Of a stretch of 64,000 bases of DNA, positions 19,326-39,835 are shown one piece after another. Under the pieces are notes generated by a model. The model did not search any database, was not told the origin of the DNA, and saw only the letters and a program-made list of their open reading frames with translations. Within the stretch, counting starts at the first letter, position 1. The number at the start of each line of letters is the position of its first letter. The translations under genes and the position numbers were made by a program. The DNA is from a phage, in the sequence record PZ496581.1; one strand, written 5' to 3'.

Positions 19326-20275
19326 TATAAAACCTCAATGGCATTTCGTAAACCATCCGCTTTTGCATTAAGAGCTTTTAATGATTTAGTTTGTTCTGCA
19401 ATCTGGGCTTCGACTTCTTTCAGACGAGATTTGAGATATTCGCGTTCTTCTCTTAAGTTATCAACTTTTTCTACTTTAGGTTCTTTAATAGGCTTAGGTT
19501 TATACGTATTAGGGTTCTTCAGCTTAATTTGAATACGAGAACTGAATAACATTGAACCGTTATCTTCGGTTTCACTATGCATTTCTACCACGTCCATGAT
19601 TCTTAACATCATGCGAAGTTTATAAGACAGCGAACGAATGGTTTTATTGTGCTTCTTAATTTCTTCAGCTTTCATGGTGCCGAGATTACGTGAGTAGTAA
19701 TAAGGAACCTGAATATCAATTGATAATGATGCGGTACCATTACCAGTTGGTTTGAATACTGCAGTAACCCAATCTTTAACATGAACTTTATTTGTACGAT
19801 CATCGCCACCTGTGAATAATTTACAAGAATGTTTAAAAAGCATATTCACTTGGTTATTGAATTCACAAGCAAATTTATCAGCAAATTTAGTTTCAGGAAT
19901 GGTAGTTAACCAATCAGCCAAATGAGTCTTTTTAACATCATTAACAATAGTGAATTCAACCAAATCGGTTTTAGATGTCACAGATTTAATAAAGCTCGGC
20001 TTCATAAAGTTTTTAATGTTATCGCGAGCTACAGTAGAAGATAATAAACGAGAACGTTTGAACCATTGAAGCAACGTCCCTAACGAATGAGAATACGCAT
20101 TTTGAGTATCTTTACAGATATGATTTTCTTGGCCTATGTATGTACCAAAATCGCGAAGAATACCACTTACTACATCTCGGTGTGGAACATCAAATCCTAA
20201 TGAACCAGAAGCACGTTGGGCATGAACGTTAGCGATAAGACCTGCAAAGTATTCAATGTAATGTGAACGTGTCAT
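19325..20275 (-). CDS. hypothetical protein with C-terminal coiled coil
   Basis: 316-aa ORF; heptad-rich C-terminus; preceded by promoter/hairpin cassette. Confidence 0.6.
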   Translation of the reverse strand: MTRSHYIEYFAGLIANVHAQRASGSLGFDVPHRDVVSGILRDFGTYIGQENHICKDTQNAYSHSLGTLLQWFKRSRLLSSTVARDNIKNFMKPSFIKSVTSKTDLVEFTIVNDVKKTHLADWLTTIPETKFADKFACEFNNQVNMLFKHSCKLFTGGDDRTNKVHVKDWVTAVFKPTGNGTASLSIDIQVPYYYSRNLGTMKAEEIKKHNKTIRSLSYKLRMMLRIMDVVEMHSETEDNGSMLFSSRIQIKLKNPNTYKPKPIKEPKVEKVDNLREEREYLKSRLKEVEAQIAEQTKSLKALNAKADGLRNAIEVL

Positions 20276-20298
20276 AATATTTTCCTCTCGTTAAGATA

Positions 20299-20337
20299 AA
20301 TTCATTATACTCCAACCATCCTTGGTTGTAAACTATT
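20299..20337 (-). promoter_or_regulatory. promoter/stem-loop cassette, copy A
   Basis: minus-strand GTTTAC-CAACCA-AGGA-UGGUUG-GAGTATAAT; core 27-mer repeated at 21319-21360. Confidence 0.45.
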
Positions 20338-21297
20338 TTATGATTTTAATGCATTCATTGCGTTAAAAAGTTTAGAATACTGCAACTGGAGATTCGTTAC
20401 AACACTTTGAGCATCACGAAGCTTAGCTTGTGCTTTGTCAAGTTCAACGGATAGTTGGTCTACAGTGGCCTTGATTTGATTGTAATGGTAATCTTCGGCC
20501 GGAAGAAGGTCATTAGAAACATTTAGTTTTACTGCAGACAGTTTGCACACATTTGGCAAACCTTTAAACATTGATTTACCCGAAGTAGAATATGCACCTA
20601 GAACTTCAGCATTGCCAGTTGGGGTTGCAGTAATTGACGCTTCGAACGTTGCATTTTCCTTTTTAAGATTTTGATAGTATTCAGAGTCTTTGTGCCACCA
20701 TGACGCAGGAACCTTTTTACCAATAGATACACGAGCCTGGATAGCGATATGGCCCTTATTCTTGATAGGGTCGATAATATTAAGCTCACGAGAATAAATT
20801 GCTTTAATCTGGTGGATATTATCACCTAAAACTTCCAACGCTTGGTGGAATACACGAGCAACGTTATCATTCTTAGGTTTATACGTAAGAGTGAACTCGT
20901 TCTCACTGATAACCATGATTTCCAACTTATCGTAAGTATATTTCAAATGTTTCATGTTAATTGCTTGAGGACGAATACGAGAAGCAATGGCCATCAGATT
21001 GTTAAGGTTATTCCGGAACTGCTTAGCGAAATATTGTCCTTCACCGCCAATACAAAAATTACGAAGTTTCTGTTTGGCTAATAAACGGCTGAACTCACCA
21101 TTTTTAATGAACTCTTTAACGGGTGTGTTAGTAACGCATTCAAATTGAGTAAACTTACGAGAATTAATCCCATAATATGAACAGATTTCCTCAATCTCTT
21201 CAGGAGTCTTTACAGGCATACGGATAGGATTAGGACCTGGGGTATATGCGTTCGAGGTAAATTCTTTGATAAGTTCTCTACGTGTAATAGAAGCCAT
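20338..21297 (-). CDS. hypothetical protein with C-terminal coiled coil
   Basis: 319-aa ORF; same architecture and same upstream cassette as 19325-20275. Confidence 0.6.
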   Translation of the reverse strand: MASITRRELIKEFTSNAYTPGPNPIRMPVKTPEEIEEICSYYGINSRKFTQFECVTNTPVKEFIKNGEFSRLLAKQKLRNFCIGGEGQYFAKQFRNNLNNLMAIASRIRPQAINMKHLKYTYDKLEIMVISENEFTLTYKPKNDNVARVFHQALEVLGDNIHQIKAIYSRELNIIDPIKNKGHIAIQARVSIGKKVPASWWHKDSEYYQNLKKENATFEASITATPTGNAEVLGAYSTSGKSMFKGLPNVCKLSAVKLNVSNDLLPAEDYHYNQIKATVDQLSVELDKAQAKLRDAQSVVTNLQLQYSKLFNAMNALKS

Positions 21298-21318
21298 TTT
21301 GTGTTCCTCATGTTGAAA

Positions 21319-21360
21319 AATTTATTATACTCCAACCATCCTTGGTTGTACATCATTCCT
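21319..21360 (-). promoter_or_regulatory. promoter/stem-loop cassette, copy B
   Basis: ATTATACTCCAACCATCCTTGGTTGTA identical to copy A. Confidence 0.45.
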
Positions 21361-21779: not shown

Positions 21780-22307
21780 TTATGCGTGAACCGTCTTTAA
21801 ACGTTCTTCAAATTTCCGAAGAGTACTAATACGTTCTGCTTTCTGTTTTGTATAGTTTGCAATACGTTCTGAAGTGAGAGCGTATCGTTCGTTTACTGTT
21901 TCTTTCATGAAGTCAGGGATTTCACGAGAAGCTTTAATTTCATCAAACTTATCGAGTACTGCCTGGTCTTCAGCAATTAAATTTTCGTACATCTCGATAT
22001 CTTTCTTGATGAAGTCGATATCTTCCTGGGTTACTTTGGATAAACGAGATGCTTTATCCTTTTTGTACTGCTCGTTAGTTTCACGAGACCAGAATAATGT
22101 ACGTTTTTTGTTAGTGTTTTTGTAGACTTCCACAATTCCAACTGAATCGATGATAACAATCCAATTCCAGCGAGATTTGAAAATCTGACCTCCGTCCACG
22201 ATAATCTCATTACCATAAGCAATGTCATTAAAGAACTTACTTTGTGCTTCAGATTTAAATTTACCGTCGTTATAATTTACCAGGTTGAAAATATCTTTAG
22301 CGTTCAT
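21780..22307 (-). CDS. hypothetical protein
   Basis: 175-aa ORF. Confidence 0.55.
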   Translation of the reverse strand: MNAKDIFNLVNYNDGKFKSEAQSKFFNDIAYGNEIIVDGGQIFKSRWNWIVIIDSVGIVEVYKNTNKKRTLFWSRETNEQYKKDKASRLSKVTQEDIDFIKKDIEMYENLIAEDQAVLDKFDEIKASREIPDFMKETVNERYALTSERIANYTKQKAERISTLRKFEERLKTVHA

Positions 22308-22365
22308 GTTTTACCTCCAGTAGTTGATAGGTCTATAATAACATAACCATAGACCTTGTAAACAG

Positions 22366-22791: not shown

Positions 22792-23793
22792 TTATTTCAG
22801 TAAAGTTACTTCAGAGATTTCCTCCCAACCATCTTTATCAGTTGAAATAAAATCTGCTACATAAAGAGCCGTACGTAATGATACATTGCGAAGACGAGAT
22901 ACGTTAGCCTTCATCCAGGACAATGCTTTATACGTTTCTGCATCCGTCAGACCACGTTTCTGCATCATGTCAGTAGATAATATTACATCTTCAACTCGAA
23001 CCATAATCTCTTCATTAGAGTGTACTCCAAGGTCGAGATACACTGAACGAGATACTAAAGCTTGAAGGTGTGGAGCAAGTTTCGAACCCCGTTCTAACTC
23101 TTTATCGATATCAACGTTTGTAATGAAAACGATAGTACCTTCAAACACAAATTCTTTATCAATACCCTTATCATCGAGATAAGATGACGCAGTGCTCCAA
23201 CAAACTTTGCGTTTATCTCCGGTATCTAATGCTGCTTTAAGAAGGTTCAAGATATCCATATCCGAGAATACGTCAACGTCATCGATTAAGAGAACGCTGT
23301 CTGCATCACGGTTGAGCCAAAGTTGTTCGTAAAGGCCAATACCAGAGATTTTACCATTAATGCTTTTGTATTTGATGAAACCATTATCATTAGCATTATT
23401 AAGTGCTTTATCCAGAGAATACGTCTTACCAATACCAGCTGCACCTGAAATAATGAGTGAACGAATTTTGCCATCGATAATGCCATTCGTCATCATGTTC
23501 ATTACTTTAAAGCGTTTGTTGATACGAGTTTTCATATCTTCAGTGCTTTCAACAACTGCAACTGGTGATGTCTCAACTCCTTCCATTACGATGTCTGATT
23601 TGAAGACCCATACTCCACGTTCAGAACCATCAATCATAACGAAAATTTTACCATCACCTAAGTGGGAACATTCAGGATTAAGCTTTGCTGGGAACCAGGT
23701 CTTTGTGGCAACATAAGAACCAGAGATTTCGTTATTACGATAGATACCTTTTTTGATTTGAACGTTGAACATTTTATTCTCCAATTTACTCAT
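22792..23793 (-). CDS. P-loop ATPase (AAA-like) with ~100-aa N-terminal domain
   Basis: Walker A GAAGIGKT, Walker B VLLIDDVD; likelier start is the second Met (GGAGAAUAAA-AUG) near 23772. Confidence 0.65.
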   Translation of the reverse strand: MSKLENKMFNVQIKKGIYRNNEISGSYVATKTWFPAKLNPECSHLGDGKIFVMIDGSERGVWVFKSDIVMEGVETSPVAVVESTEDMKTRINKRFKVMNMMTNGIIDGKIRSLIISGAAGIGKTYSLDKALNNANDNGFIKYKSINGKISGIGLYEQLWLNRDADSVLLIDDVDVFSDMDILNLLKAALDTGDKRKVCWSTASSYLDDKGIDKEFVFEGTIVFITNVDIDKELERGSKLAPHLQALVSRSVYLDLGVHSNEEIMVRVEDVILSTDMMQKRGLTDAETYKALSWMKANVSRLRNVSLRTALYVADFISTDKDGWEEISEVTLLK

Positions 23794-23869
23794 TTCGTTT
23801 CGATAGGTCTATAATAACATATCCTAAAAGCATGTACACTACTTTTTAAAAATATTTTAACCCCCTAAA

Positions 23870-23885
23870 GGGACCCGAAGGTCCC
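23870..23885 (-). other. UUCG-tetraloop RNA hairpin
   Basis: GGGACC-UUCG-GGUCCC on minus-strand RNA. Confidence 0.45.
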
Positions 23886-23946
23886 CACATTTACTTATCG
23901 CACTTAGCAACATAATTAGGCATATCACAGAATACAGAGCGAGTAA

Positions 23947-24156
23947 CTACTCGGCCCTTTGACCATGCTTCAGTTGCTTGTCCGGCCGTGCTATTAATAT
24001 AGCTTGATTTAAGTTCTCAATACCCTGAGAATGTGATGCATTTACCGAACCATTGGAAGGCCCAGAAGACTGGTTACCACCAGCTCCTGCACCTGTGGTA
24101 GCACCAACAGAGAATGCCATCATTACTGCGAATAAACCAATTACTAATTTTTTCAT
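23947..24156 (-). CDS. small secreted protein (signal peptide, Gly/Ser/Asn-rich)
   Basis: MKKLVIGLFAVMMAFSVGA signal peptide; TATAAATA late-promoter motif ~33 nt upstream; C-terminal frame uncertain. Confidence 0.45.
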   Translation of the reverse strand: MKKLVIGLFAVMMAFSVGATTGAGAGGNQSSGPSNGSVNASHSQGIENLNQAILIARPDKQLKHGQRAE

Positions 24157-24187
24157 ATTTACCTCAAGTTAAGGGTTATTTATCTAT

Positions 24188-25174
24188 TTATTTATAGTAA
24201 GAATTATGATTTTCGAGATAGACTTGCTCAAGGAAATCATCCCAGAAACTCATATCTACTTTTTGTTGCATACCGTTCTTAGCGGCTTGTTCTGACGCAT
24301 GTTCAACTTGGTCAACGATATCTTCTAGGAATTCTTGTACAGTTTTAAACGTATGTTTACCAAGCTTAACATCGAGAATAAATGGAGCATCCTGAAGTGG
24401 GTAAACCAGGTCGCCGGTTTTGTAAATTTCCAATAATTGAAGTCCACCACGACATGCATGACTCAATGCTTTCCAGTCAATACCTTCGTTGGCTTCCGCC
24501 TTACGAGCACGTTCACCGTAGTTCTCTTCCAGTTTAACCAGGATGGCATTGAACTCTTTATTGGTTAACGTATCTTGGAATTTACGATCTAACAGATTAT
24601 AGAATGTTTGCTTACCTGTTTTCTCGTTTTCGGTTTCAACCCACGAAGCAAATTCACCTACAGGCAGAACATTCTTCATATGTGATAAACGAATTACTGC
24701 ACCGTTATCAAAGTATTGTCCCCATTCATTAGAACGTTTAAGGGCTTGACGAAGAACAGCCAGTCGAGAACCCTTGACGCCGTATTTAGAAGCTTGCTTA
24801 CGGACATACCCTAAATAAGATTTCATGTTAGTGGTATAGAAACGAGACCTGTTATCTTGAATATACTTCCATACATCAGGCAAATCAGATTTAACTACTA
24901 GACTTTGTGGAGTGTGAAGCATATCTAATGCGACGGTTTCACCATCCGCGGCTAGTTTAAAGAAATATTTGAGACTATACAACTCATGGTCCACGTCGTC
25001 TTTTGTGTTCTTAGAAGATGTGTTATTCGTGTTCTTGCTCATGTGTTCTTTAACGTTACCGGTCAAGATATCACGAGCATGAGGGACATAAATTTCTTTA
25101 AAATCGACGTCAGATTCAGGAGTAGACGTTCCATAAAGGTGGCTACCAAAGTAAGCCTTAACAATAGTTTTCAT
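24188..25174 (-). CDS. nucleotidyltransferase-fold protein (Pol-beta superfamily-like)
   Basis: 328 aa; N-terminal FGSHLYGTSTPESDVDF plus downstream acidic residue in VALDMLH fit the G[GS]-x9-13-DxD + D pattern. Confidence 0.5.
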   Translation of the reverse strand: MKTIVKAYFGSHLYGTSTPESDVDFKEIYVPHARDILTGNVKEHMSKNTNNTSSKNTKDDVDHELYSLKYFFKLAADGETVALDMLHTPQSLVVKSDLPDVWKYIQDNRSRFYTTNMKSYLGYVRKQASKYGVKGSRLAVLRQALKRSNEWGQYFDNGAVIRLSHMKNVLPVGEFASWVETENEKTGKQTFYNLLDRKFQDTLTNKEFNAILVKLEENYGERARKAEANEGIDWKALSHACRGGLQLLEIYKTGDLVYPLQDAPFILDVKLGKHTFKTVQEFLEDIVDQVEHASEQAAKNGMQQKVDMSFWDDFLEQVYLENHNSYYK

Positions 25175-25940
25175 TATTCACTTTCCTTTCATAATCTTCA
25201 ATGAACTGTAATATTAAGCGTTGGTAATTTGATTTAGGATAACCCATTTTACTAATATGGGTTCCGAAAGCCCCACGCTTAGGTCGATTCAATTTAATCC
25301 AAAGTTCGTAAAGCATATCATAATCTTCCCAGTGTTTACCAGTTCGTTGTCTAGCTTTAGACGCTTCAGACTGTCTCTTTTTAGTTTCTGGATTATCTAG
25401 GGCCTTTTTAACAGCTCTTGAATGCCGTTCTTTAACATCATCTCTCTTAAAGGCCTCTTTGATAGCAGTAGATATTTTTGCTTTAACTTCAGGTCTATTC
25501 TGTGCCTCTATTTGAGAATCTGACATTTTAGCCTTTATCTCAGGGAGGCTCATGGTCGCTGAACGCTTATCACGATATTCTTGTGATTCCCATATATCTT
25601 TCATTCTATTAGAGTGAATTTCTGAAAACTTTTCCCTTACGTCTTTATAGCCTCTTGAGGTTAATTTAAGATTTCGTCCTAAAGCATCTTCGCCTAAATT
25701 ATAGAACGCCCAGTAAGCGTAAATCAATCCGTCGGAGTTTGGGTGAATTTTTGATAATAACCAATGAGCGATAAAATGTTCCCTGGCAGTCAATAAAACT
25801 TTATTACTCGGGTCATCACTCCCTCCAATACATGAAGGGATTATGTGATGGGATTCAGTATAATAATTCAACTCAGACTTATCACTGCCTCTAAGTTTTC
25901 CTCGTTGAATTATTGCATCATAACATTTGATATAATTCAT
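25158..25940 (-). CDS. HNH homing endonuclease (MobD-like)
   Basis: 260 aa; ESHHIIPSCIGGSDDPSNKVLLTAREHFIAHW HNH motif; basic Lys/Arg-rich C-terminus. Confidence 0.7.
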   Translation of the reverse strand: MNYIKCYDAIIQRGKLRGSDKSELNYYTESHHIIPSCIGGSDDPSNKVLLTAREHFIAHWLLSKIHPNSDGLIYAYWAFYNLGEDALGRNLKLTSRGYKDVREKFSEIHSNRMKDIWESQEYRDKRSATMSLPEIKAKMSDSQIEAQNRPEVKAKISTAIKEAFKRDDVKERHSRAVKKALDNPETKKRQSEASKARQRTGKHWEDYDMLYELWIKLNRPKRGAFGTHISKMGYPKSNYQRLILQFIEDYERKVNNENYC

Positions 25941-26413
25941 TTGCCTGACTTGTATTCAAGAGTAGGACACACTTTAGCTTTACGAGCTTTTAAAAATTCA
26001 ACGATAATCGATTTCTTGGGTTGAATAGGCGCAAGTCCATTTTTAATTCGTTCTTGGTTTTGTGCAATGAGCTCAATTTCTTTATAATATTTTCTGTCGT
26101 TATATTTGTCTAACAACCAAGACGGACCAATTACCAACCCGGTAGCAATAAAAGCCATGACTGCTACAATTAAAATGCCTACACCAATTGAGGCTGGAAC
26201 TAATGTCCATAGACTGCTAAAAACAAAGAATTTAGTTAAAATTTCCTGGCCAATGATTGTGACTGCTGCTAAAATCGCAAATCCAATAATTGAAGCAGCC
26301 AATACCGGGATTAGCGTTTTCCAAAAATAAGCACACAACGTTTTCGGACGATTCCATGTACTATTAAACGCGGCATAAATTTTAAAGTGCCAAGAGTTTT
26401 CATTGATAATCAT
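25937..26413 (-). CDS. hypothetical membrane protein
   Basis: 158 aa with 3-4 predicted TM helices. Confidence 0.55.
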   Translation of the reverse strand: MIINENSWHFKIYAAFNSTWNRPKTLCAYFWKTLIPVLAASIIGFAILAAVTIIGQEILTKFFVFSSLWTLVPASIGVGILIVAVMAFIATGLVIGPSWLLDKYNDRKYYKEIELIAQNQERIKNGLAPIQPKKSIIVEFLKARKAKVCPTLEYKSGK

Positions 26414-26422
26414 AATAATTCC

Positions 26423-26953
26423 TTATTTCAAAGTTGGGATAATAGAATCGAGATAAGCTTTAAGAGCAACTGCCTCATCTTTGTCTAATGTAATGATATG
26501 TTGACGAAGGTCATCAATTTGGCGAATAACTACGACATCACCATCTTCATAAGAAGGATTAACGCCTAGGACTGTTGTATAGTCAGGGCGGTCCTGATTT
26601 GTAATAAAAGCATTACGGCATTTAGCCCATTGAAGTTTGGCCTTTTTGGCTGTTTCAGATTCCATTAATTCTTTCACCTTAGTGACGAATGTTTTCCAAT
26701 TATTAATAGAAAAACATTCGTCTTCAGTTTCGATATTGGCCGCGTTGTAAAGACCAGGATAAAAACGAACTTGGAGGTCTTCACCAATGTTAATTACCTC
26801 TCGACGACGTCCAGACGGATTGAGTTTCAAAATCTTGTCCAGTTCCATAGGAAGAATAGCAGCATCATCTTCTTGTGTCAGAACATACACATAACCACGT
26901 TTTTCGATACATAAATCACCGAACAACTCGGTTGTTTCAATTACAGTTTTCAT
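26423..26953 (-). CDS. hypothetical protein
   Basis: ORF 26423-26965 uses a TTG; ATG at 26953 (MKTVIETT...) is the likelier start. Confidence 0.55.
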   Translation of the reverse strand: MKTVIETTELFGDLCIEKRGYVYVLTQEDDAAILPMELDKILKLNPSGRRREVINIGEDLQVRFYPGLYNAANIETEDECFSINNWKTFVTKVKELMESETAKKAKLQWAKCRNAFITNQDRPDYTTVLGVNPSYEDGDVVVIRQIDDLRQHIITLDKDEAVALKAYLDSIIPTLK

Positions 26954-26954
26954 A

Positions 26955-27135
26955 TTATTCACCAATTAAAGTTTCAACAAAATTCACCAAAGCATTCTGG
27001 CAAGCGTCAACCTGATTTTCATAAAAATCTCCGTTATCATTTACCGCATGATAAGCTACATCATTCAAATCTGAATCAGCTTCACGTAAGTCACGGATAA
27101 GGTCCATCAATTTATTAGCTTGTTCACGGGTCATT
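26955..27135 (-). CDS. hypothetical small acidic protein (59 aa, below ORF-track cutoff)
   Basis: manual translation MTREQANKLMDLIRDLREADSDLNDVAYHAVNDNGDFYENQVDACQNALVNFVETLIGE. Confidence 0.35.
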
Positions 27136-27242
27136 TTACCATACTCGTTTCAATAAGATTCACTATGCCGTTTACCATGTTATAAGTAAACATCGGATAA
27201 TTGTATTGTACTACAACATAAGCGATAAGCAAAAGTTTCATT

Positions 27243-27298
27243 TTGTTCTCCGTTTGTTTTGATAGGACTACTATAACATAGTCCTACCAAGATGTAAA
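27243..27298 (-). promoter_or_regulatory. early-promoter/stem-loop cassette (PeSL-like)
   Basis: GTTTAC ... GATAGGACTA-TGTTA-TAGTCCTATC around a TATAGT -10; ~48-bp near-identical copy at 41368-41416. Confidence 0.45.
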
Positions 27299-27532
27299 CT
27301 ACCGATTGTGTTTTAAATGTTGATAAAGTTCTTCAACTTGTTTAGGGTCCAAAACAATTAAGTCATTTTCTTGACGAAGATAAATCCATCCCTTATCCCC
27401 AGGGCCATTTTTACAAAACATCACCACCATATCATCATCTTCAGCGCTTTCAGGTAAAAGTTCAAGTACACCGTCTTCAGATTTTCCAGTATAATCGTAA
27501 AGCATAATATCCTCACATAATCTCGTTAACAT
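27299..27532 (-). CDS. hypothetical protein
   Basis: 77-aa ORF. Confidence 0.5.
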   Translation of the reverse strand: MLTRLCEDIMLYDYTGKSEDGVLELLPESAEDDDMVVMFCKNGPGDKGWIYLRQENDLIVLDPKQVEELYQHLKHNR

Positions 27533-27691
27533 ACATTTGCAATTCGGTGTGGGCTTCGGCCATCTTTTTCATAGCTCTGTTAATGTCGATGTCTCCATCT
27601 TCGCAACCATGAGCATTTTCCCAATCAGATACCGCATTAGCGTACTCTTCAATCAAAAACATTAACTTAGAAATTTTTTCTTTACGTGACA
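27513..27691 (-). CDS. hypothetical protein
   Basis: ORF 27513-27761 starts on TTG; ATG at 27691 with GAGGAG SD gives a 59-aa product. Confidence 0.45.
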
Positions 27692-27759
27692 TAACGTTCT
27701 CCTCTAGTAAGTAAGGACTACTATAACACAACCTGAGGAGAAGTAAACTGATAGATGCC

Positions 27760-27790
27760 AAAAAGCCCCAACCTTTCGGAAGGGGCTAGT
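27760..27790 (-). terminator. intrinsic terminator downstream of rI
   Basis: GCCCC-UUCC-GAAA-GGUU-GGGGC hairpin (GNRA loop) plus U5 on minus RNA; identical copy at 38263-38293. Confidence 0.6.
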
Positions 27791-27793
27791 AAA

Positions 27794-28096
27794 TTAGATA
27801 GATGTAGGCTCTAATTTTATTTTCATGAACTCGGCAAATTGTCTGGCAGTTTTTATGCCTTGTTCATGACATTCAAATGCATCATCACAGGGGCTATTTT
27901 TGTAATGCTTTGCCATATACTTATAGAATTTTTCAGAATTCTCGACATTTTGAATTTCAAACAAAGTATATACGTTTTTAATCCCTGATTCCATAAAGTT
28001 ACCAAAATATGGGTCGATATATGCAGTACCAACGATAGGAGTTGTTGCTGCAAAAAACCCCAGCATCGCCATGACAGCTATCGCTCTTAAGGACAT
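27794..28096 (-). CDS. rI: lysis-inhibition regulator RI (antiholin)
   Basis: 100 aa; signal-anchor then [20 protein letters not shown]...[13 protein letters not shown] matches T4 RI. Confidence 0.85.
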
Positions 28097-28347
28097 ATAG
28101 GCCTCCTGTTAATTTTGGCCAGTATTATTTTTCGCCTTTGGACGGCCTTAACATCTGCGAGGTATTTTTCCAGCTTGCGCTTGCGTGTATAATCAGCTTT
28201 AGAACCAGTTTGACGGATATCCTCGTTTAAATGAGAAATAGAATGTCCTAATTCTCTTCGGATTTCATCCAATTGGGTTACAGTAAGATTACGAAGTTGT
28301 CTTTCGTTTAATTGCTGCATATATACCTCTTGGTTAGATATTAGTAT

Positions 28348-28929
28348 TTATAACAACCCTGTCAAATCGTTCCAATGCTTCCGGCATAATGACACATATC
28401 TATCGGTATCACCAATTTCAATTTGACTGCCATCTGTAATTGGAAGTCCGTCTTCCGTGACTCTAGCTACCATTGTGGCCTTTTTACCACAATGACAGAC
28501 ACCTTTAAGTTCAACAAGCTTATCGGCAATAGCCATTAATGCTTGAGAACCTTCAAATAGATTACCTTTAAAATCTGTTCGTAGTCCATATGCCATTACC
28601 GGCACATTGTATACGTCAACAATACGACTAAGTTGATACACCTTTTCAGTAGTTAAGAACTGAGCTTCGTCAACAAATACACAGTGAATATCCTTTTGTG
28701 CTGCAGCCCATTTATAGAATTCAAAGATATCCATGTCTTTTGTAATTATATTGGCATCCTGACGAATACCAATACGAGAGACTATTTCACCTTTTGAATC
28801 GCGAGTATCAATAGCCGGTTTAAGAACTAATACACCCATGCCACGTTCTTTATAGTTATGTGCGGCAGTAAGTAATGAAGCAGACTTACCAGCGTTAATA
28901 GCGGCATAGGTAAAAATTAAACTAGCCAT
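28348..28929 (-). CDS. tk: thymidine kinase
   Basis: 193 aa; P-loop AAINAGKSASLL and C-terminal CxxC...C Zn site. Confidence 0.93.
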   Translation of the reverse strand: MASLIFTYAAINAGKSASLLTAAHNYKERGMGVLVLKPAIDTRDSKGEIVSRIGIRQDANIITKDMDIFEFYKWAAAQKDIHCVFVDEAQFLTTEKVYQLSRIVDVYNVPVMAYGLRTDFKGNLFEGSQALMAIADKLVELKGVCHCGKKATMVARVTEDGLPITDGSQIEIGDTDRYVSLCRKHWNDLTGLL

Positions 28930-28938
28930 AAGAGTCCC

Positions 28939-29121
28939 TTATAGTGAATTCACGTAGTCAATGAGTTCTTGTTCTTTCCTGTCAAATGATTCCAACAATG
29001 CTTGATATCCTTCGTCCGTCAAAGGAGCATATTCATCATACGCATTGGTGGCTGCTTGCTCATCCAATAGGTCATGGATAAGTTCGAACAGTTTAGTTTT
29101 CTCTTCTTTAGTCAATTTCAT
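28939..29121 (-). CDS. hypothetical acidic protein
   Basis: 60-aa ORF. Confidence 0.45.
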   Translation of the reverse strand: MKLTKEEKTKLFELIHDLLDEQAATNAYDEYAPLTDEGYQALLESFDRKEQELIDYVNSL

Positions 29122-29345
29122 TTAGGTTCACCTTCTTTAACGAAATCTGGGTAAGGGTAAAATCCTGAGTAAAACCCTTCACCTTTATGATTGCTACAAC
29201 CTTTGTTCGAACAGTAACACCAATAATCAAAATCACAAGCCATTTCGTCATTGCATAAAGCAAAAACTACAGGCCATTCGCATTTTTCGCATTTAGCACC
29301 TGTAAGAATTTTTGTTTGACTCATAGCCATGTCACCTTTAAGCAA
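29118..29345 (-). CDS. hypothetical Cys-rich protein
   Basis: 75 aa with 9 cysteines (CEKCEW...CNDEMAC...CYCSNKGC). Confidence 0.5.
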   Translation of the reverse strand: MLKGDMAMSQTKILTGAKCEKCEWPVVFALCNDEMACDFDYWCYCSNKGCSNHKGEGFYSGFYPYPDFVKEGEPK

Positions 29346-29548
29346 TATTCTTCTACATGTTGTTTACGGCCTTTCTTATCAATAAAGGTATATTCAACGA
29401 ATGTTCCGATGTAGTCTTTATCTACATCATGTGGACTATTAATTGGACATTTGGTACGACAAATGCGTTCCCATTGACGAATAATTACTGCCTTATTCTT
29501 TGGGTCATATGGATGTGGATAATGTATATTCATAATAACGGTTCCCAA
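29321..29548 (-). CDS. hypothetical protein
   Basis: 75-aa ORF. Confidence 0.45.
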   Translation of the reverse strand: MGTVIMNIHYPHPYDPKNKAVIIRQWERICRTKCPINSPHDVDKDYIGTFVEYTFIDKKGRKQHVEEYCLKVTWL

Positions 29549-30027
29549 TCAACAATCACAATTTCTAGTTTAGTGGAATACGTATCTAAAATCTCTTCGA
29601 TGACATCCCAGTTTCCACCACCAATACCTGCACCAATTCTTGGCATATAAATTACAGGCTTTGTTATCTTATTCTTTCCGAATTCATTTAATTCTATTAT
29701 ACAATTCATTAAAGCAGAGTACTCAAAATTAGGTCCAGGCTCAAACTGTGTATAAAGATTAAAGCAATAAGCTTTATGGGTCTTAAAATATTTTTCATAA
29801 ACCGAATAAGTCCCGAGTTTAGACTCGTCTCCGAATTCTGTTTGAAGTTTATCGGCTTCCAGAATTTTTGGATAAGCCTTTGCTAATTGTCCTGCCACAC
29901 CAGCGCCCATTGTATGAAAACAATTACATCCATGAGCAATATTATTACCTTTAGAAAACAGGGCGACAATATCGCCCTTGATATAGTTTTTAATCACTTG
30001 CTGCAAGTCCTCTAGTATAAGAGTCAA
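29530..30027 (-). CDS. macro-domain-like protein (putative ADP-ribose binding/processing)
   Basis: 165 aa; GCNCFHTMGAGVAGQL and YMPRIGAGIGGGNW resemble macro-domain Gly-rich loops. Confidence 0.45.
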   Translation of the reverse strand: MTLILEDLQQVIKNYIKGDIVALFSKGNNIAHGCNCFHTMGAGVAGQLAKAYPKILEADKLQTEFGDESKLGTYSVYEKYFKTHKAYCFNLYTQFEPGPNFEYSALMNCIIELNEFGKNKITKPVIYMPRIGAGIGGGNWDVIEEILDTYSTKLEIVIVDWEPLL

Positions 30028-30337
30028 CTAGACGGTCCACCATAGAATTGCATGCTGCCTTATCTTTAGGTTCCGCCACCGAGCATTCTAATATTTGCCA
30101 TTTTTTATAGTATCTTTTAATTAAGGTAGACGCCTTGAACCTACTAGACGCCCCATCTTTTTCTCCGTCTTTATACGCATATAACAATTTTTGTGAAAAA
30201 TCTACTTTACACTCTTGACTTTTACCACAGTAATCAGACGCCGTTCTGTTTGTATACTCCGTTACATCAGTATATGTAGTATTAGCAAGAGCGTTAAATG
30301 AAACCAAGCCAACTATTAAAGCCAACATTTTGGTCAT
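29990..30337 (-). CDS. secreted Cys-containing protein
   Basis: 115 aa; signal peptide MTKMLALIVGLVSFNALA; four cysteines. Confidence 0.55.
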   Translation of the reverse strand: MTKMLALIVGLVSFNALANTTYTDVTEYTNRTASDYCGKSQECKVDFSQKLLYAYKDGEKDGASSRFKASTLIKRYYKKWQILECSVAEPKDKAACNSMVDRLVDSYTRGLAASD

Positions 30338-30876
30338 TCTTTTATTTCCAGTAGTTTATTTGATTTAAGGTAATTAGCCTTTTCTAGGACTTCAGAAGCA
30401 TATTTACTTCCAGCACTTGTCTTCCATCCCGCATTATATGAGGATATAGCTTTTCTTATATCCCCATTATGTATATTTAACCAATAAGAAAATTCGATAT
30501 AAGCCCATCTGGCTGAATTAGACCGCTTAGATAGCATTTTCTTAATTTGGGCATCAGTCATATTATAACCAAGCTGGTTAATTCTTGCCCTCATTGTTGG
30601 TAGATAGTTTTGGAACATTCCATACGCATGGTGACCTTTCTTATCTTTAAGATTAATACCGGCAGATGATTCTTGCCATAGTATTGCGGCCATTATGTAT
30701 CCAAGTCCTTTCTTATGCATATTTTCATGCGTTTTAAATTTTCCGTCCTTAGAAAACTGTTCCCCAAACTGATAAGCATAATTCAAGTTATCGAGTTGGA
30801 CATTACTAAAAGTATGCTCGGAGCTATGTGCTGATAATGAAAGAGCAAATAGACCAGCGAGTAGTGCTTTTCTCAT
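30334..30876 (-). CDS. periplasmic lytic transglycosylase (SLT domain)
   Basis: 180 aa; signal peptide MRKALLAGLFALSLSAHS; SLT motifs WQESS, YGMFQ, SYNAG. Confidence 0.7.
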   Translation of the reverse strand: MRKALLAGLFALSLSAHSSEHTFSNVQLDNLNYAYQFGEQFSKDGKFKTHENMHKKGLGYIMAAILWQESSAGINLKDKKGHHAYGMFQNYLPTMRARINQLGYNMTDAQIKKMLSKRSNSARWAYIEFSYWLNIHNGDIRKAISSYNAGWKTSAGSKYASEVLEKANYLKSNKLLEIKE

Positions 30877-30884
30877 GTTTACCT

Positions 30885-31343
30885 CTAGATTTTAATCACT
30901 GCTTTAGAAGCTTTTCCCGGTAGTCGTTTACTGTTAATAATAGCCATTCTACATTGAAGAGTCTTCATTTTGAATGCCGGATTTTCGCGACAAACTGTAA
31001 GTCCTAACCAAAGATTTCCATCAGTTATTTCTAAACGGCCTGGGCGATATTCGACACCTTCGACAAAATCTTCATCAACATCTGGACGTGCCGGCATTGA
31101 TAAAAATTCTGCAACTTCTTTAACATGATTTTTTACTTTACGAAATAATTCAAAAACGTAATTCTCATCTATTTCTCTCTGGATGGCACGATCTAAGAGA
31201 TGTTGAGAATACTTGATATGAAAGCCTGGTAGTCCAAGAGACTTTGCAGCATCTTTTATACTGGCATTTATTTTGCGGAACTCCGTTTCAAAGATTCGAC
31301 GGAGTTTATTACGGCGGATAAAAACGTCTGAATTGATAGTCAT
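30885..31343 (-). CDS. regB: endoribonuclease RegB
   Basis: 152 aa, MTINSDVFIRRNKLRR...EYRPGRLEITDGNLWLG...INSKRLPGKASKAVIKI matches T4 RegB. Confidence 0.93.
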   Translation of the reverse strand: MTINSDVFIRRNKLRRIFETEFRKINASIKDAAKSLGLPGFHIKYSQHLLDRAIQREIDENYVFELFRKVKNHVKEVAEFLSMPARPDVDEDFVEGVEYRPGRLEITDGNLWLGLTVCRENPAFKMKTLQCRMAIINSKRLPGKASKAVIKI

Positions 31344-31405
31344 TTTGATTTCTCCTCTAGTTGACAGATCTATAGTAACACAACTAGAGGAGAAGTAAAC
31401 TACTT
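31344..31405 (-). promoter_or_regulatory. regB promoter with SD-sequestering inverted repeat
   Basis: GTTTAC-N17-TACTAT; 14-nt arm TTCTCCTCTAGTTG in the spacer is complementary to CAACTAGAGGAGAA covering the regB SD. Confidence 0.45.
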
Positions 31406-31620
31406 TATTGATAAAATGGAGTTAAAGCCCAAGATTCTTTAGATACCATATTGGCGAAATGCCTCATCTCTTCGATTTGGCGACGACGCTGGTCAGCATA
31501 GTCTTCTTCGCCTTCTTCCTTACAATCTTAAAGGTCTTCTTCAAGATACTTTAAGTATTCACTACAAATTTTGTTGACCTTTTCTTGGAAGTCCAATAAC
31601 CCAGTAATAGTAGAAGCCAT
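31406..31620 (-). CDS. small ORF interrupted by an in-frame TAA (30 codons + 40 codons)
   Basis: MASTITGLLDFQEKVNKICSEYLKYLEEDL-stop-DCKEEGEEDYADQRRRQIEEMRHFANMVSKESWALTPFYQ, single frame. Confidence 0.3.
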
Positions 31621-31865
31621 TAGTATTTTTCCTCAGGCTGAAATACTGCGCGGCAAGCCCACATACTAGCTTCCTTTAGACGCTCTTTAGCACAGTTAAG
31701 TTGGGACAAAGCCGTCAGAGCTTCAGGAGTATTTGCTGATAATGCTTCTTCTGCCAGGGCGTCCAGAATAAGTCCTAAACGAACTTCAGCATCTTTGATA
31801 GCATTCACTTTGCCGATTTTGTCATCGGTGTGTGGTTTGTAACCTTTAATATCTTCAATCGACAT
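31620..31865 (-). CDS. hypothetical protein
   Basis: ORF 31620-32033; internal Met (MSIEDIKGYKPHTDDKIGK...) is the likelier start. Confidence 0.45.
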   Translation of the reverse strand: MSIEDIKGYKPHTDDKIGKVNAIKDAEVRLGLILDALAEEALSANTPEALTALSQLNCAKERLKEASMWACRAVFQPEEKY

Positions 31866-32079
31866 AAGGAATTTCCTCATCGGTGGCAAGGTCATATTCG
31901 ACCAATTGGATAGGCTCATTAATACCATATCCACGTACAGTGATATCAGTTGTCGGATAGTTTCCAGTAATATCACCCATTCTAAATGATTCAATGAATG
32001 ATTGCTCGCCTGAGCAACTAAACCAGGCGGCAAAACATTTTAAAACATCTTCAGACCCTTCTATAATCAATTTAGCCAT
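31855..32079 (-). CDS. hypothetical acidic protein
   Basis: 74-aa ORF. Confidence 0.45.
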   Translation of the reverse strand: MAKLIIEGSEDVLKCFAAWFSCSGEQSFIESFRMGDITGNYPTTDITVRGYGINEPIQLVEYDLATDEEIPYVD

Positions 32080-32442
32080 TATAGACTCTCAGTAAAGGTA
32101 CGAGCGATAACGTCGCGCTGCTGTTCTGGAGTCAGAGAGTTAAAGCGAACTGCATAACCGGATACACGGATGGTCAGCTGCGGATATTTTTCCGGATGCT
32201 TAACTGCATCTTCCAGAGTTTCGCGACGCAGAACGTTAACGTTCAGGTGTTGACCACCTTCAATTTTAACTTTAGGTTGATGTTCAATTTCAATTTCACG
32301 GGCATGCAAACCGTAGAAAATTTCCGGGTCTACAATAGCGTCCTTCTTTAAAAGTCTTAGAGACAATAATCCGGGCTTGAGTACCGTCTTCAAAATAAAT
32401 AGTGCCTTTATGTGCACCTTCAAGAATTTGATATGCTTTCAT
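32079..32442 (-). CDS. GrcA/YfiD-like autonomous glycyl-radical cofactor, apparent 1-nt frameshift
   Basis: C-terminus ...[59 protein letters not shown]; ATG at 32442 opens another frame (MKAYQILEG...[12 protein letters not shown]). Confidence 0.6.
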
Positions 32443-32448
32443 ATAACC

Positions 32449-32730
32449 TCAATTAGAAAATAAATTTATCCAAGATTTTTCTTTAATCAAAAATGGGTCG
32501 GAATTAAACGCCATTAAACTTTGAGTGATTAATCCCTTAAATGGCCCATCAATAAATTCCATTTTGAAATGCGGAATACTAGTCATCAACCGTGCATTAG
32601 GAGCAGTACAAAGAACCTGCTGCCCTGCGAACGGGCCTTTAGTCAAACGGTATCGTTTAGGTTTAAAATGGTAAATCTCGTAATTTTCTACAAGGGCCCT
32701 TTTATTGCATACTGGGCTGTTATAACACAA
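32449..32730 (-). CDS. hypothetical protein
   Basis: 93-aa ORF. Confidence 0.5.
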   Translation of the reverse strand: MCYNSPVCNKRALVENYEIYHFKPKRYRLTKGPFAGQQVLCTAPNARLMTSIPHFKMEFIDGPFKGLITQSLMAFNSDPFLIKEKSWINLFSN

Positions 32731-32755
32731 TATTCAAAAACTTCAATAGTGGTCA

Positions 32756-33295
32756 TCATTGCATTCCAATCACAAAAAATTGAGGACGAGCATTACCACC
32801 GATGCAATATTTGCTTTTGCAGCAGTGCTGTAATGTTTTAATGTGGACATTGTAAATCTTATCCATATCAGGAGCTTTAATAGGCTCGTCAATTATATAC
32901 AGAATACGAGAAAGCGTTAATCCACGGAATTTAGAACCTTCATTGCCAATAAAACTACGAACAGAATCAGTAAATAAACGGAATCGAATATCATCGCTAG
33001 AATAACGAGAAAATTCTTTTTCAATGTTGCCAGCAGAAATTTTAGCATAAGCTGAAGTATTAGAAAGAACAATAACTGTTCCGCCATCATACAGCCAATT
33101 AGCAGCAAAGTTAGTCACAGCAATTGATTTACCTGATTGTCGGCCACCGTCTAAACGAAGTGTACAGTACTGCTTGAGTACGTCTTCAAATGGTGGGACA
33201 TAACCGTTCTTACAAATTTCTTCTACTCTAGCATCAGAATGGTGTGTAAAAGCATTCATCAGGGATAGATAAGGACCAGTTAAAAATGTTCTCAT
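32756..33295 (-). CDS. hypothetical P-loop NTPase
   Basis: 179 aa; Walker A GGRQSGKS, Walker-B-like LYIIDE. Confidence 0.55.
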   Translation of the reverse strand: MRTFLTGPYLSLMNAFTHHSDARVEEICKNGYVPPFEDVLKQYCTLRLDGGRQSGKSIAVTNFAANWLYDGGTVIVLSNTSAYAKISAGNIEKEFSRYSSDDIRFRLFTDSVRSFIGNEGSKFRGLTLSRILYIIDEPIKAPDMDKIYNVHIKTLQHCCKSKYCIGGNARPQFFVIGMQ

Positions 33296-33467
33296 TTAGT
33301 TTCTCTTTTAGGTTGGGCCATTCCGTGGCACATGTTAGGTCCTTCGACTCGCTATGTAAACCCATTACCGCATTGCGCTCGACCTTATTACAGGTTGGAA
33401 AAGGTACATCACTCAGAGGACTCGACGTTCATAAGGAGAGGTTGCGTTTCCCTTTATTAGGCAAGAA

Positions 33468-33797
33468 TTATACTCTAGGCTTTTGAGCTTGTTTGGTATT
33501 GGATTCCCATGCGGCTTTGGTAATTTTGTTAGCGGCATAACCAAAGGCATTAGATAGAACACCTTTAGAGTTGAATACATCCAATCCAATAAGTACACCG
33601 GCTGTGTTAAATTTAGGAGCAAAGTACGCATTAGTTTTAGAAAGAGCTTTTTTCAATTCAGGGTCTTGAACCAAGCCATCAAAAACGCCTTTACTATTTA
33701 CTTTATATGTTACTTTGGGATTTTTACCTTCTTCGATAGCAGCTTTCTGTTCCGCAGATAATGTAACTTCAGTGATAAACTCCTGATATGTTTTCAA
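33468..33797 (-). CDS. internal-protein-like, capsid-targeting N-terminus
   Basis: MKTYQEFITE N-terminus resembles the T4 IP capsid-targeting sequence. Confidence 0.6.
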   Translation of the reverse strand: MKTYQEFITEVTLSAEQKAAIEEGKNPKVTYKVNSKGVFDGLVQDPELKKALSKTNAYFAPKFNTAGVLIGLDVFNSKGVLSNAFGYAANKITKAAWESNTKQAQKPRV

Positions 33798-33822
33798 TTT
33801 GTTCCTATTGTTTTAATTTATG

Positions 33823-34137
33823 TTATTCTTTAGGGAAGTTTTTAGAGTATGCATCATAAAGTTTATTACCAATACGACGGAAGACTTTAGCTGCAAAACG
33901 GTTTTCAGGGTTTTTAATCATGATTTGCATCATGTAAGTTCCTGCATCCGAAAGAGCTTCTTCATAATACCCATTAATTTCTTTAAGAGTCCTACGTTTA
34001 CCACCAGGACCATCAACAGTAATTTTCCATTTACCTGTAGAAGTGCGGCTCGGTGGCTCAACTTGTTCAATCCAAATATAACCACCTTCAACGCGTTGGT
34101 TGGCGGATTCTGCAATAAATTCTTTATACGTTTTCAT
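33823..34137 (-). CDS. internal-protein-like, capsid-targeting N-terminus
   Basis: MKTYKEFIAE N-terminus; GTTTAC-N18-TATAAT promoter upstream. Confidence 0.6.
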   Translation of the reverse strand: MKTYKEFIAESANQRVEGGYIWIEQVEPPSRTSTGKWKITVDGPGGKRRTLKEINGYYEEALSDAGTYMMQIMIKNPENRFAAKVFRRIGNKLYDAYSKNFPKE

Positions 34138-34200
34138 TTTTGTTTCCTTGTTTGTTTTGATAGAGTAATTATACCATATTAATACTTAAGCGTAAACCGT

Positions 34201-34461
34201 TTAAGCTTTACCGCCAGAAATAATTCCGAAGTTGTTAAAATCATATCCAATATCGTCAACATCTACTTTAGGACTTGCTACAACATAAGCAATTTCACTA
34301 CGTTTTGCATAGGTGTTGATTTCTTTACCATTGCCACCTAAGAAAGAATACCCATTACGTTTTAATGAGCCAAAGTCTTCCGCATCACCAATGAAAGCTT
34401 TAACTTTAAATTTAGGGTCTTTGGTATCTGCTTCAACGATAAATTCTTGATACATTTTCAT
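34201..34461 (-). CDS. internal-protein-like, capsid-targeting N-terminus
   Basis: MKMYQEFIVE N-terminus. Confidence 0.55.
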   Translation of the reverse strand: MKMYQEFIVEADTKDPKFKVKAFIGDAEDFGSLKRNGYSFLGGNGKEINTYAKRSEIAYVVASPKVDVDDIGYDFNNFGIISGGKA

Positions 34462-34467
34462 TTTTCC

Positions 34468-34881: not shown

Positions 34882-34893
34882 AATTTCCTCCAA

Positions 34894-34939
34894 GTAGTTG
34901 ATGAATGTATAGTATCAAAGTCCTTGGAGGAAGTAAACA
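34894..34939 (-). promoter_or_regulatory. denV promoter with SD-sequestering inverted repeat
   Basis: GTTTAC-N18-TACTAT; arm TTCCTCCAAG complementary to CTTGGAGGAA at the denV SD. Confidence 0.4.
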
Positions 34940-35706: not shown

Positions 35707-35740
35707 AATACCTCCCACGTTTATAGGAGGTATTTATTAC

Positions 35741-37482: not shown

Positions 37483-37567
37483 AACATTTTCCTCTGTAGT
37501 TGATAAGTCTATAGTATCACATCTAGGGAAGAAGTAAACAACTTTTTTAGTAAGTTATAGACCCCCT

Positions 37568-37589: not shown

Positions 37590-37591
37590 CT

Positions 37592-39829: not shown

Positions 39830-39835
39830 TTTGTT

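Follow-up and report, generated by a model that had tools for sequence, protein, structure and literature searches.

Hairpins at phage promoters have been described in two settings that bear on the elements analysed here, a family of early-promoter cassettes in a 64,000-nucleotide (nt) stretch of phage DNA (record PZ496581.1; hereafter the window, to whose positions all coordinates refer). The first is the promoter-early stem-loop (PeSL), in which the stem-loop was regarded as a terminator or attenuator: with one such stem-loop, from phage RB49, lacZ expression fell to much the same extent as with rrnB T1 (Arbiol 2010, PMC2839356), and PeSLs were extended to the T4/PST pair with the promoter consensus TTTACW-N17-TAYWAT and an 'AGNA-loop-TCNT' stem (Comeau 2014, PMC4122927); pairing with the Shine–Dalgarno (SD) sequence is not mentioned in these papers. 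The second comprises the hairpins that sequester the ribosome-binding site (RBS) of e, soc, 49, 25/26, I-TevI-III, segB and Aeh1 mobE (Uzan & Miller 2010; Edgell 2010; PMC3014915, PMC2988022), every described case being a late gene with a gp55-type TATAAATA promoter (Edgell 2010).

Judged by its sequence, the window belongs to an RB69-like Mosigvirus, a T4-type phage: 242 T-even phage records match its 26–29 kb region (megablast), the nearest of them being Mosigvirus, identity to RB69 (AY303349) is 94.6% over 26400–28300, T4 aligns in blocks only (67–95% identity), and the gene order runs T4-like from gene 43 to the baseplate genes. The cassettes, most of which we name by the 5′ end of their -35 element on the minus strand (e.g. 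27299), share with PeSLs an AT-rich tract, a sigma70-like early promoter, a stem-loop within or overlapping that promoter, and an SD followed by a start codon, as well as the T4/PST-type consensus, AGNA...TCNT stems, enrichment in variable regions and a position at indel or replacement junctions. This resemblance had been proposed in an earlier note on the same DNA, and it is borne out by AGGA...TCCT stems that fit Comeau 2014 and by relatives with cassette-bounded gene loss or replacement; to read them as PeSLs is right, and is known from the literature. Most stems of the window lie within the promoter, as in the RB49 PeSLs, whereas the legend of the PST figure places them just upstream of it, which is true here only of the terminator at 27760–27787 and cassette 27748.

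The cassettes also recall the hairpins of e, soc, 49 and I-TevI, in which the SD lies in the 3′ arm, transcripts from the gene's own promoter lack the 5′ arm and long transcripts are silent. Those genes have late promoters, whereas the promoters of the window are of the early sigma70 type with the 5′ arm in the spacer between -35 and -10, and one would predict that the gene is expressed from its own early promoter alone, not late-only expression. As none of the window cassettes combines a late (gp55, TATAAATA) promoter with a late gene, they would work like this family without being members of it as now described. A further parallel is offered by lambdoid morons, which are autonomous expression modules with their own regulatory signals; moron signals are not thought to move the unit, whereas here the crossover site is the shared cassette sequence. 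A search of the accessible literature, reviews included, turned up no account of anti-SD arms within an early promoter. Stem-loops ahead of ipIII, ipII, denV and tk were reportedly noted as a possibility in a 1986 abstract by Valerie and colleagues, so a denV stem-loop as such is probably not new. In our reading, which we consider likely, T4-type early promoters occur as ~60-bp PeSL cassettes with hairpin arms in the spacer, one geometry of which (B, below) occludes the SD; the anatomy of the sequences, their enrichment over chance, the covariation of the arms and the cassette-bounded indels carry this reading.

Early promoters with a built-in hairpin

All 13 sites listed in the earlier note are present on the minus strand, 5′ of an SD and a start codon. 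The GTTTAC -35 element that the note held to be common to them is exact in nine, while the sites it numbered 12415 (GTATAC), 12711 and 21319 (both ATGTAC) and 23808 (GTGTAC) carry one or two mismatches each. The motif search that the note had suggested, run on the window, returned 18 matches to GTTTAC-N17/18-TANNNT against ~2 expected (six with 17-nt and 12 with 18-nt spacers, ~1 expected for each), and 15 of these lie on the minus strand. Alignment of 18 candidate cassettes gave the consensus aaAata-GTTTAC-(17/18)-tgTGt-TATaAT-a.acCTATCaa, with TGn before the -10 in 13 cassettes and 70% A+T in the 25 nt upstream. The sequence features of an early promoter (-35, spacer, TAnnnT and an A-rich UP-like tract) are found together, in the same architecture as that of T4 early promoters (Hinton 2010), and the listed promoters are co-oriented with early-gene orthologues, namely regB, denV, the internal-protein genes and the nrdC/mobD/tk regions. 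For RB69, Nolan et al. 2006 (PMC1524935, Additional file 3) predicted early promoters at Pe:57689, Pe:58138, Pe:61376 and Pe:64934, which are the same elements at coordinates orthologous to those of window cassettes, Pe:57689 corresponding to window 27299 and Pe:58138 to window 27748 (offset +30376); promoters alone were modelled there, hairpins and SD being outside that study. By their sequence, the cassettes are T4-type early promoters (Pe) with a built-in hairpin.

These hairpins take three geometries: in A the stem forms around the -10, in B the 5′ arm pairs with the SD, and in C a small hairpin lies in the spacer. The inverted repeat of 8–14 bp that the earlier note placed at the -10 or the SD was found at about eight of its 13 sites, bracketing the -10 at 12711, 22321, 27243, 41368 and 41705 and pairing with the SD at 31344, 34894 and 27700; the other five have no convincing stem (6 bp at 12415, a 6-bp spacer hairpin at both 20299 and 21319, none at 23808 and a weak one at 37483). 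Two cassettes described as near-identical copies are indeed so, 27302–27253 and 41416–41367 agreeing at 47 of 50 positions. On the whole, the observations of the note stand in part, being over-generalised in places, and the interpretation that it built on them is supported.

Enrichment of the inverted repeats over shuffled sequence, the lack of which the note had named as a refutation, was evident when fold energies were compared with those of dinucleotide shuffles: the mean z was -2.0 across 18 cassettes, with eight below -3. Folds of -13 kcal/mol or lower occur in 8 of the 18 window cassettes, as against 9.7% of 2000 random 60-mers from the same strand (binomial p = 1.4e-4). Among single cassettes, values were -21.3 kcal/mol for regB (z -3.9), -18.3 kcal/mol for 27299 (z -4.6, with none of 200 shuffles as good), -18.1 kcal/mol for 41413 (z -4.5), -17.8 kcal/mol for denV (z -4.2), -16.8 kcal/mol for 41768 (z -3.8), -16.4 kcal/mol for 12750 (z -3.5), -13.6 kcal/mol for 22363 (z -1.9) and -8.3 kcal/mol for 13708 (z -1.3). 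The stems of 20333 (z -1.4), 21353 (z -1.0) and 12458 (z -0.6) are individually non-significant, and 37539 and 23839 gave z -0.6 and z +1.1, respectively. The full PeSL composite of early promoter, stable stem-loop, SD and start codon is clearly found in about 8 of the 18 cassettes and is missing from 34197, 19353 and 17916, all without a stem, and from 23839. The last of these looks like a decaying PeSL from its sequence, its 5′ arm having lost 1 nt and its 3′ arm having changed, which has destroyed the stem. The likeness of 23839 to 41413 extends to the 5′ untranslated region, AAATGAGTAAAT(T)GGAGAA.

Pairing of the arms in geometries B and A

In geometry B the 5′ arm lies directly 3′ of the -35 element, and its partner is the SD region just past the predicted +1. 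The complementarity to the SD that the earlier note had claimed for regB, denV and 27691 (cassette 27748) is present in the sequence over 14, 10 and 8 bp, respectively, 27691 being the weakest. Because the arm sits between the -35 and the predicted +1, a transcript from the gene's own promoter would lack it. Modelled folding also favours the claim that read-through occludes the SD, again least so for 27691: when the modelled RNA included 120 nt of upstream sequence, an unpaired SD had a probability of 0.00 for both regB and denV, compared with 0.46 and 0.60, respectively, for RNA starting at the predicted +1, and at 27748 it was 0.14 for read-through and 0.53 for proximal RNA. In these models regB and denV therefore behave as hairpins split by a promoter, with the SD in a stable helix on read-through RNA and proximal transcripts predicted to lack the 5′ arm. 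As a positive control, the same procedure recovered the classical late-promoter hairpin of gene e at 35707–35734, an RBS-sequestering hairpin AUACCUCCUAUA-AACG-UGGGAGGUAU on the minus strand, directly 5′ of ATG 35704–35706. Late-promoter-like TATAA motifs lie within and upstream of the 5′ arm of this gene e hairpin.

Comparison of orthologous regB and denV loci, taken from IMG/VR, showed that the arms vary in concert. The regB leaders carry ~10 different arm extensions, each with a matching partner: TAGTTG/CAACTA in the window, TTGACTG/CAGTTAA in T4 (two G-U pairs) and, elsewhere, TTTATG/CATAAA, TGTAAG/CTTACA, TTTTAGT/ACTAAAA, ATTTG/CAAAT and CTCTTG/CAAGAG. Likewise, denV orthologues have CCAAG/CTTGG, CTGTAG/CTACAG, CGTTTG/CAAACG and one 14-bp version, and in some phages the denV 5′ arm overlaps the -10 to +1 region, where it remains 5′ of the start site and paired with the SD. 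Alignment was anchored solely on the SD 4-mer and its complement, and because only these 4-mers were used, the arm extensions had no influence on the selection of rows; MAFFT without anchors had put the arms of the regB cassettes out of register and was dropped in its favour. Among the 34 distinct geometry-B cassettes aligned in this register, 73.2% of cells are paired as against 56.5% after shuffling (a level reached in none of 500 shuffles), double-change cells number 115 as against 51, and the covariation score is 0.451 as against 0.155 for shuffled arms and 0.08–0.14 (maximum 0.142) for partners slid by 1–3 columns. In a duplex test on 55 cassettes, the segment upstream of the start preferred its own leader to those of other cassettes (z = -6.5), and the geometry-B own-versus-other comparison gave z = -5.6 for 150 cassettes outside the loci targeted through regB and denV.

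A pattern scan of ~1.5 Mb of T-even DNA yielded 189 non-redundant cassettes, 21% of which have strong SD-sequestering hairpins, compared with 4.8% when the spacer is shuffled (p = 3e-15); outside the targeted loci such hairpins were found in 21 of 150 cassettes, before many different genes. The signal is carried only by these strong hairpins, which T4 has at the early promoters of regB, denV and nrdC.8. By these measures the geometry-B pairing is under selection. For regB and denV, SD occlusion has good in silico support from geometry, thermodynamics and strong covariation, and it extends to a sizeable minority of T-even early promoters.

Two further observations concern individual loci. The nrdC.8 promoter has a hairpin that brackets the -10 in the window (22305–22363) and a 13-bp SD-sequestering hairpin of -19.4 kcal/mol in T4 (53886–53945), which implies that the geometry can switch at one locus. 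In three giant phage contigs of ~350–380 kb (L039, L040 and L041), a GC-rich terminator-type hairpin lies ~60 nt 5′ of denV, its loop being UUCG in L039 and L041 (GGGTTGAC-TTCG-GTCAGCCC-TTTTT) and GAGA in L040, with a TTGAC -35 within the 5′ arm and a TATAAT-like -10 17–18 nt further on; on this sequence evidence it is a different, composite terminator-promoter design.

Geometry A is represented by 27299, 41413, 41768, 22363, 12750 and, weakly, 12458, with one arm in the spacer and the other in the -10 to +1 region, so that the entire hairpin lies upstream of the predicted start. Duplexes between the spacer and the -10 to +3 segment are cassette-specific in the own-versus-other comparison (z = -7.0 in one test and z = -12.7 in another), which points to selection on geometry A. 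The outer AGG...CCT is partly promoter consensus, and the inner pairs vary yet match (ACTA/TAGT, ATGAT/ATCAT, TCTAT/ATAGA and AAGA/TCTT). Between T4 and the window, the promoters of mobD.2, ipI and trna.4 carry unrelated stems of 10–15 bp at the same position, the T4 mobD.2 orthologue having a different 15-bp stem at the place of the 27299 stem. In near relatives, orthologues of 27299 showed single changes only (G-U, G-C or A-C at one pair; U-G or C-A at another) and zero double compensations, and only one locus was retrieved in a search for related loci based on the mobD.1-like protein. Geometry-A stems are followed by CAAAAC, not by a U-run, and the sole canonical terminator among the cassette hairpins is that at 27760–27787. 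For geometry A, the flagged cassette 27299 included, the most likely role on read-through RNA, itself a guess, would be attenuation or protection of the 3′ end of the upstream message.

Cassettes at sites of gene loss and replacement

One metagenomic contig, IMGVR_UViG_3300029310_000133, matches window 40553–41413 and 41762–43000 in two blocks that overlap by 7 nt, which means that exactly 41414–41761 is missing. The loss comprises the ipI-like internal-protein gene and one cassette, cassette 41413 being joined directly to the 57B flank, and the junction falls within the GTTTAC common to cassettes 41768 and 41413; read from its sequence, this is a clean natural cassette-to-cassette deletion at the internal-protein locus. 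In another relative, at 94–96%, the internal-protein gene between 41413 and 41682 has been swapped for other genes, which bear the same AGGACTA hairpin. Both cases place cassettes at indel or replacement junctions between close relatives, as is characteristic of PeSLs.

Moreover, the cassette at 27236–27301 alone matches many Tequatrovirus genomes at 92–94%, phage Ozark among them, before an unrelated gene, and the core TAGGACTATGTTATAGTAGTCCTA is found 5′ of at least six different genes. Blocks of homology between T4 and the window end at 27299, 31400, 34917 and 12421/12768, the last two ends bracketing an open reading frame (ORF) of 79 amino acids (aa) that is absent from T4 and flanked by cassettes 12458 and 12750; with four boundaries in or at cassettes against a rough hand expectation of 1.4, and at 70–80% identity, these block ends are suggestive only. 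Of the four indel types that close relatives show in the 26.1–28.6 kb region, only one lies next to a cassette, and the copies on either side of it are of a terminator, not of promoters. In PTE-Eco05 and LF82-4, a 595-bp insertion (185-aa ORF) lies between two AGCCCCTTCC...GGTTGGGGCTTTTT terminator copies, the duplicated terminator being the one just upstream of cassette 27748 (window 27759–27787), and the inserted gene has a late-promoter-like TATAAATA upstream and no early promoter. Cassettes would act as crossover points because they have 30–50 nt in common.

The positions of the cassettes and of the genes around them are given in Table 1. A ~30-nt stretch, ACAACCAAGGATGGTTGGAGTATAAT, is common to cassettes 20333 and 21353, which precede neighbouring genes of 316 and 319 aa. 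Immediately 5′ of the regB cassette, the 219 bp at 31401–31619 contain just ORFs of 20–30 aa where T4 has vs.3; T4 homology ends exactly at 31400 and restarts at 31615, and from its sequence this segment may be a decayed or replaced gene. An Rfam scan of the window returned three tRNA genes as its sole matches and no family for the cassette hairpins; in the corresponding region, T4 encodes eight tRNAs as well as rnaC and rnaD.

Table 1. Cassettes and neighbouring genes in the window
Feature	Coordinates	Strand	Details
Cassette 27299 (flagged), geometry A	27239–27299	minus	5′ of 36-aa mobD.2-like ORF; -35 GTTTAC 27294–27299; -10 TATAGT 27270–27275 after TG; predicted +1 near 27263; 5′ arm 27278–27290, loop 27272–27277, 3′ arm 27259–27271 (13 bp, 2 G-U); SD GGAG 27248–27251; ATG 27239–27241
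Cassette 41413 (twin), geometry A	41344–41413	minus	5′ of trna.4-like ORF; -35 41408–41413; -10 41384–41389; hairpin 41374–41403, 12 bp; SD GGAG; probable start ATG 41344–41346
Cassette 41768, geometry A	41702–41768	minus	5′ of ipI-like gene 41417–41704; -35 41763–41768; -10 TACTAT 41739–41744; 5′ arm 41748–41759; 3′ arm 41733–41744
Cassette 22363, geometry A	22305–22363	minus	5′ of nrdC.8-like gene; -35 22358–22363; -10 TATTAT 22335–22340; stem 22346–22356 with 22329–22339
Cassette 12750, geometry A	12695–12758	minus	-35 ATGTAC 12753–12758; 12-bp stem 12740–12751 with 12718–12729, around -10 TATTAT 12729–12734; GTG start 12695–12697
Cassette 12458, weak geometry A	12389–12458	minus	-35 GTATAC 12453–12458; -10 TATAAT 12429–12434; 6-bp stem, GAGAGA 12439–12444 with TCTCTC 12423–12428
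regB cassette, geometry B	31341–31400	minus	14 bp; -35 31395–31400; -10 TACTAT 31372–31377; predicted +1 near 31365; anti-SD 5′ arm TTCTCCTCTAGTTG 31381–31394; SD-containing 3′ arm CAACTAGAGGAGAA 31350–31363; ATG 31341–31343
denV cassette, geometry B	34879–34938	minus	10 bp; -35 34933–34938; -10 TACTAT 34909–34914; predicted +1 near 34902; 5′ arm TTCCTCCAAG 34923–34932; SD-containing 3′ arm CTTGGAGGAA 34885–34894; ATG 34879–34881
Cassette 27748, terminator + promoter composite, weak geometry B	27690–27787	minus	5′ of 59-aa ORF 27513–27692; intrinsic terminator 27760–27787 directly past rI; -35 27743–27748; -10 TATAGT 27720–27725; 5′ arm TTCTCCTC 27735–27742 with SD GAGGAGAA 27697–27704, 8 bp; ATG 27690–27692
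Cassette 13708, weak geometry B	13649–13708	minus	ATCCTC...GAGGAA; -35 13703–13708
Cassette 37539, weak geometry B	37485–37539	minus	imperfect anti-SD arm TTCTTCC...GAGGAAAA
Cassette 20333, geometry C	20275–20333	minus	-35 20328–20333; -10 TATAAT 20304–20309; hairpin CAACCA/TGGTTG, 6 bp, wholly within spacer, also in 21353
Cassette 21353, geometry C	21297–21353	minus	-35 ATGTAC; ~30 nt in common with 20333
Cassette 23839, degenerate 41413-type copy	23770–23839	minus	-35 GTGTAC; ~80% identity over full length; stem complementarity gone
regB	30885–31343	minus	
denV	34468–34881	minus	
rI	27794–28096	minus	
tk	28348–28929	minus	
mobD.2-like ORF	27131–27241	minus	36 aa
trna.4-like ORF	ends 41161	minus	
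Internal-protein (ipI-like) gene	41417–41704	minus	
Three tRNA genes	38961–39033, 39758–39829, 39839–39910	minus	Rfam

What the hairpins may do

In the mechanism that we propose, a cassette would run from the upstream stop codon through the A-rich UP-like tract, GTTTAC, the 17–18-nt spacer, TGn-TAnnnT and CTATCAA to the SD and start codon, and the spacer, being free of sequence constraints from RNA polymerase, could encode one arm of a hairpin. Because both arms are transcribed only from an upstream promoter, the hairpin would form only in read-through RNA. The geometry-B 5′ arm, an anti-SD with a gene-specific extension, would pair with the SD region just 3′ of the cassette's own start, so that the RBS would be buried on read-through RNA and open on RNA from the gene's own promoter; according to the folding models, the hairpin probably hides the RBS in this way at regB, denV and other genes. 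The gene would, in effect, need its own early promoter to be translated and would be insulated from upstream and later transcription, a logic that would mirror that of the hairpins at the late promoters of T4 e, soc, 49 and I-TevI. Geometry B is found at regB and denV, weakly at the 27692 ORF, and in ~14–21% of such cassettes across T-even relatives. Geometry A would give read-through RNA a stable hairpin 10–20 nt past the upstream stop codon. Crossovers in the shared cassette sequence would delete, insert or swap the intervening genes. Where transcription starts, how the RNA folds in vivo, how translation is affected and what geometry A does are predicted parts of this mechanism.

Several points weigh against it. 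The +1 positions are placed throughout by sigma70 geometry, and T4 start-site data sets, sought in the literature, were not found. By a loose criterion (at least three SD nt paired in the minimum-energy fold), SD pairing is not enriched (46.6% versus 44.7% in shuffles), and the loci of the census were partly ascertained by pattern or gene. G-U and A-C cells are equally rare (6 versus 5), and covariation alone therefore does not indicate sense-strand RNA over DNA. Cassette 27748 has a fold of -13.5 kcal/mol that is not significant alone (z -0.9), and its hairpin lies directly past a terminator that already limits read-through. Geometry-A stems, for want of a U-tract, do not qualify as canonical terminators. 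Several indels of phages ST0 and WFK fall within ORFs, away from cassettes. Finally, if the upstream promoter is also early, both RNAs would be made together, which would amount to insulation and not to clear temporal gating.

Alternative functions at the level of RNA have to be considered. All hairpins might be attenuators or terminators of incoming transcription, as is held for PeSLs, with SD pairing incidental, which we regard as possible if rather doubtful. The drop in lacZ expression caused by the RB49 stem-loop, to about the level seen with rrnB T1 (Arbiol 2010), the start of the hairpins at a median of ~11 nt past the upstream stop codon and the true terminator that precedes cassette 27748 would all fit, but the stems of the window are AT-rich and run into CAAAAC instead of a U-run, geometry-B loops of 17–28 nt are unlike those of terminators, and a terminator would need neither an SD that is always in the geometry-B 3′ arm nor a gene-specific extension that covaries. 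Translational coupling, in which the geometry-B SD would be opened only by a ribosome terminating on the upstream ORF, is suggested by the stop codons of upstream ORFs, which lie between -60 and +8 of the -35 in 141 of the 189 cassettes (median, 7 nt before it), and by strong-B 5′ arms that begin a median of 11 nt past the stop, within reach of the terminating ribosome. Since the interquartile range is 9–27 nt and the arms measure 10–15 nt, mostly just the outer pairs would be opened, and upstream of regB in the window there are only ORFs of 20–30 aa, so we think coupling unlikely. No more probable, to our mind, is a role in mRNA decay, the hairpins shielding GGAG-type SDs from the RegB endoribonuclease or stabilising cleaved upstream 3′ ends. 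RegB does cleave early SDs at GGAG, secondary structure inhibits it, the regB mRNA is itself a target, cleaved at its own SD, the T4 denV SD is resistant in vivo, and the 27299 SD GGAGAACAAAA fits the published RegB consensus GGAGRAYARAA in our own comparison; yet Durand 2006 ascribed the resistance of denV to sequence and not to structure, and a buried SD would block ribosomes with or without RegB.

The repeats could also act as DNA, either as recombinogenic cruciforms or hairpins or by binding a factor responsible for shutting early promoters off. The equal rarity of G-U and A-C cells makes the pairing strand-neutral, cassettes are crossover points and how early promoters are shut off has not been explained (Hinton 2010), but arms that differ among cassettes make a single sequence-specific protein unlikely, the crossover in the deletion contig lies in the shared -35 and not in a stem, and the constant coincidence of the SD with the geometry-B 3′ arm would be left unexplained; we hold this to be improbable. 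Least credible, and already disfavoured, is the view that the repeats are mere paralogous promoter copies whose stems reflect chance or self-complementarity of the consensus (AGG...CCT). CCTATC does belong to the promoter consensus, some cassettes are near-identical and 5 of the 13 listed sites lack a significant stem, but the inner stem positions vary between cassettes and covary, and the arms passed both the own-versus-other comparison (z = -12.7 for A, -5.6 for B) and the slid-partner control.

Cassettes as such are ordinary published biology, and what is added here is comparative evidence for a covarying anti-SD arm in a substantial minority of them. SD occlusion at an early promoter would be an early-context variant of a known T4 control that has so far been reported only for late T4 genes. 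It is conceivable, and we put it forward tentatively, that T-even cassettes are self-insulating modules in which the anti-SD arm of the spacer silences the RBS on incoming transcripts, so that a shuffled gene is translated only from its own promoter. If this is true, PeSL shuffling would be linked to a widespread, previously unlisted translational control of early genes, covering ~15–20% of cassettes, among them those of the RegB nuclease and the DenV repair enzyme. Confirmation would mean that regB, denV, T4 nrdC.8 and other genes are translated only from their own promoters, and would extend the 'promoter inside a hairpin' control of T4 from late to early genes. It could also account for the tight control of the RegB nuclease, would show why dense tandem strong promoters do not lead to cumulative over-expression downstream, and would provide phage engineering with compact, context-independent promoter–RBS parts.

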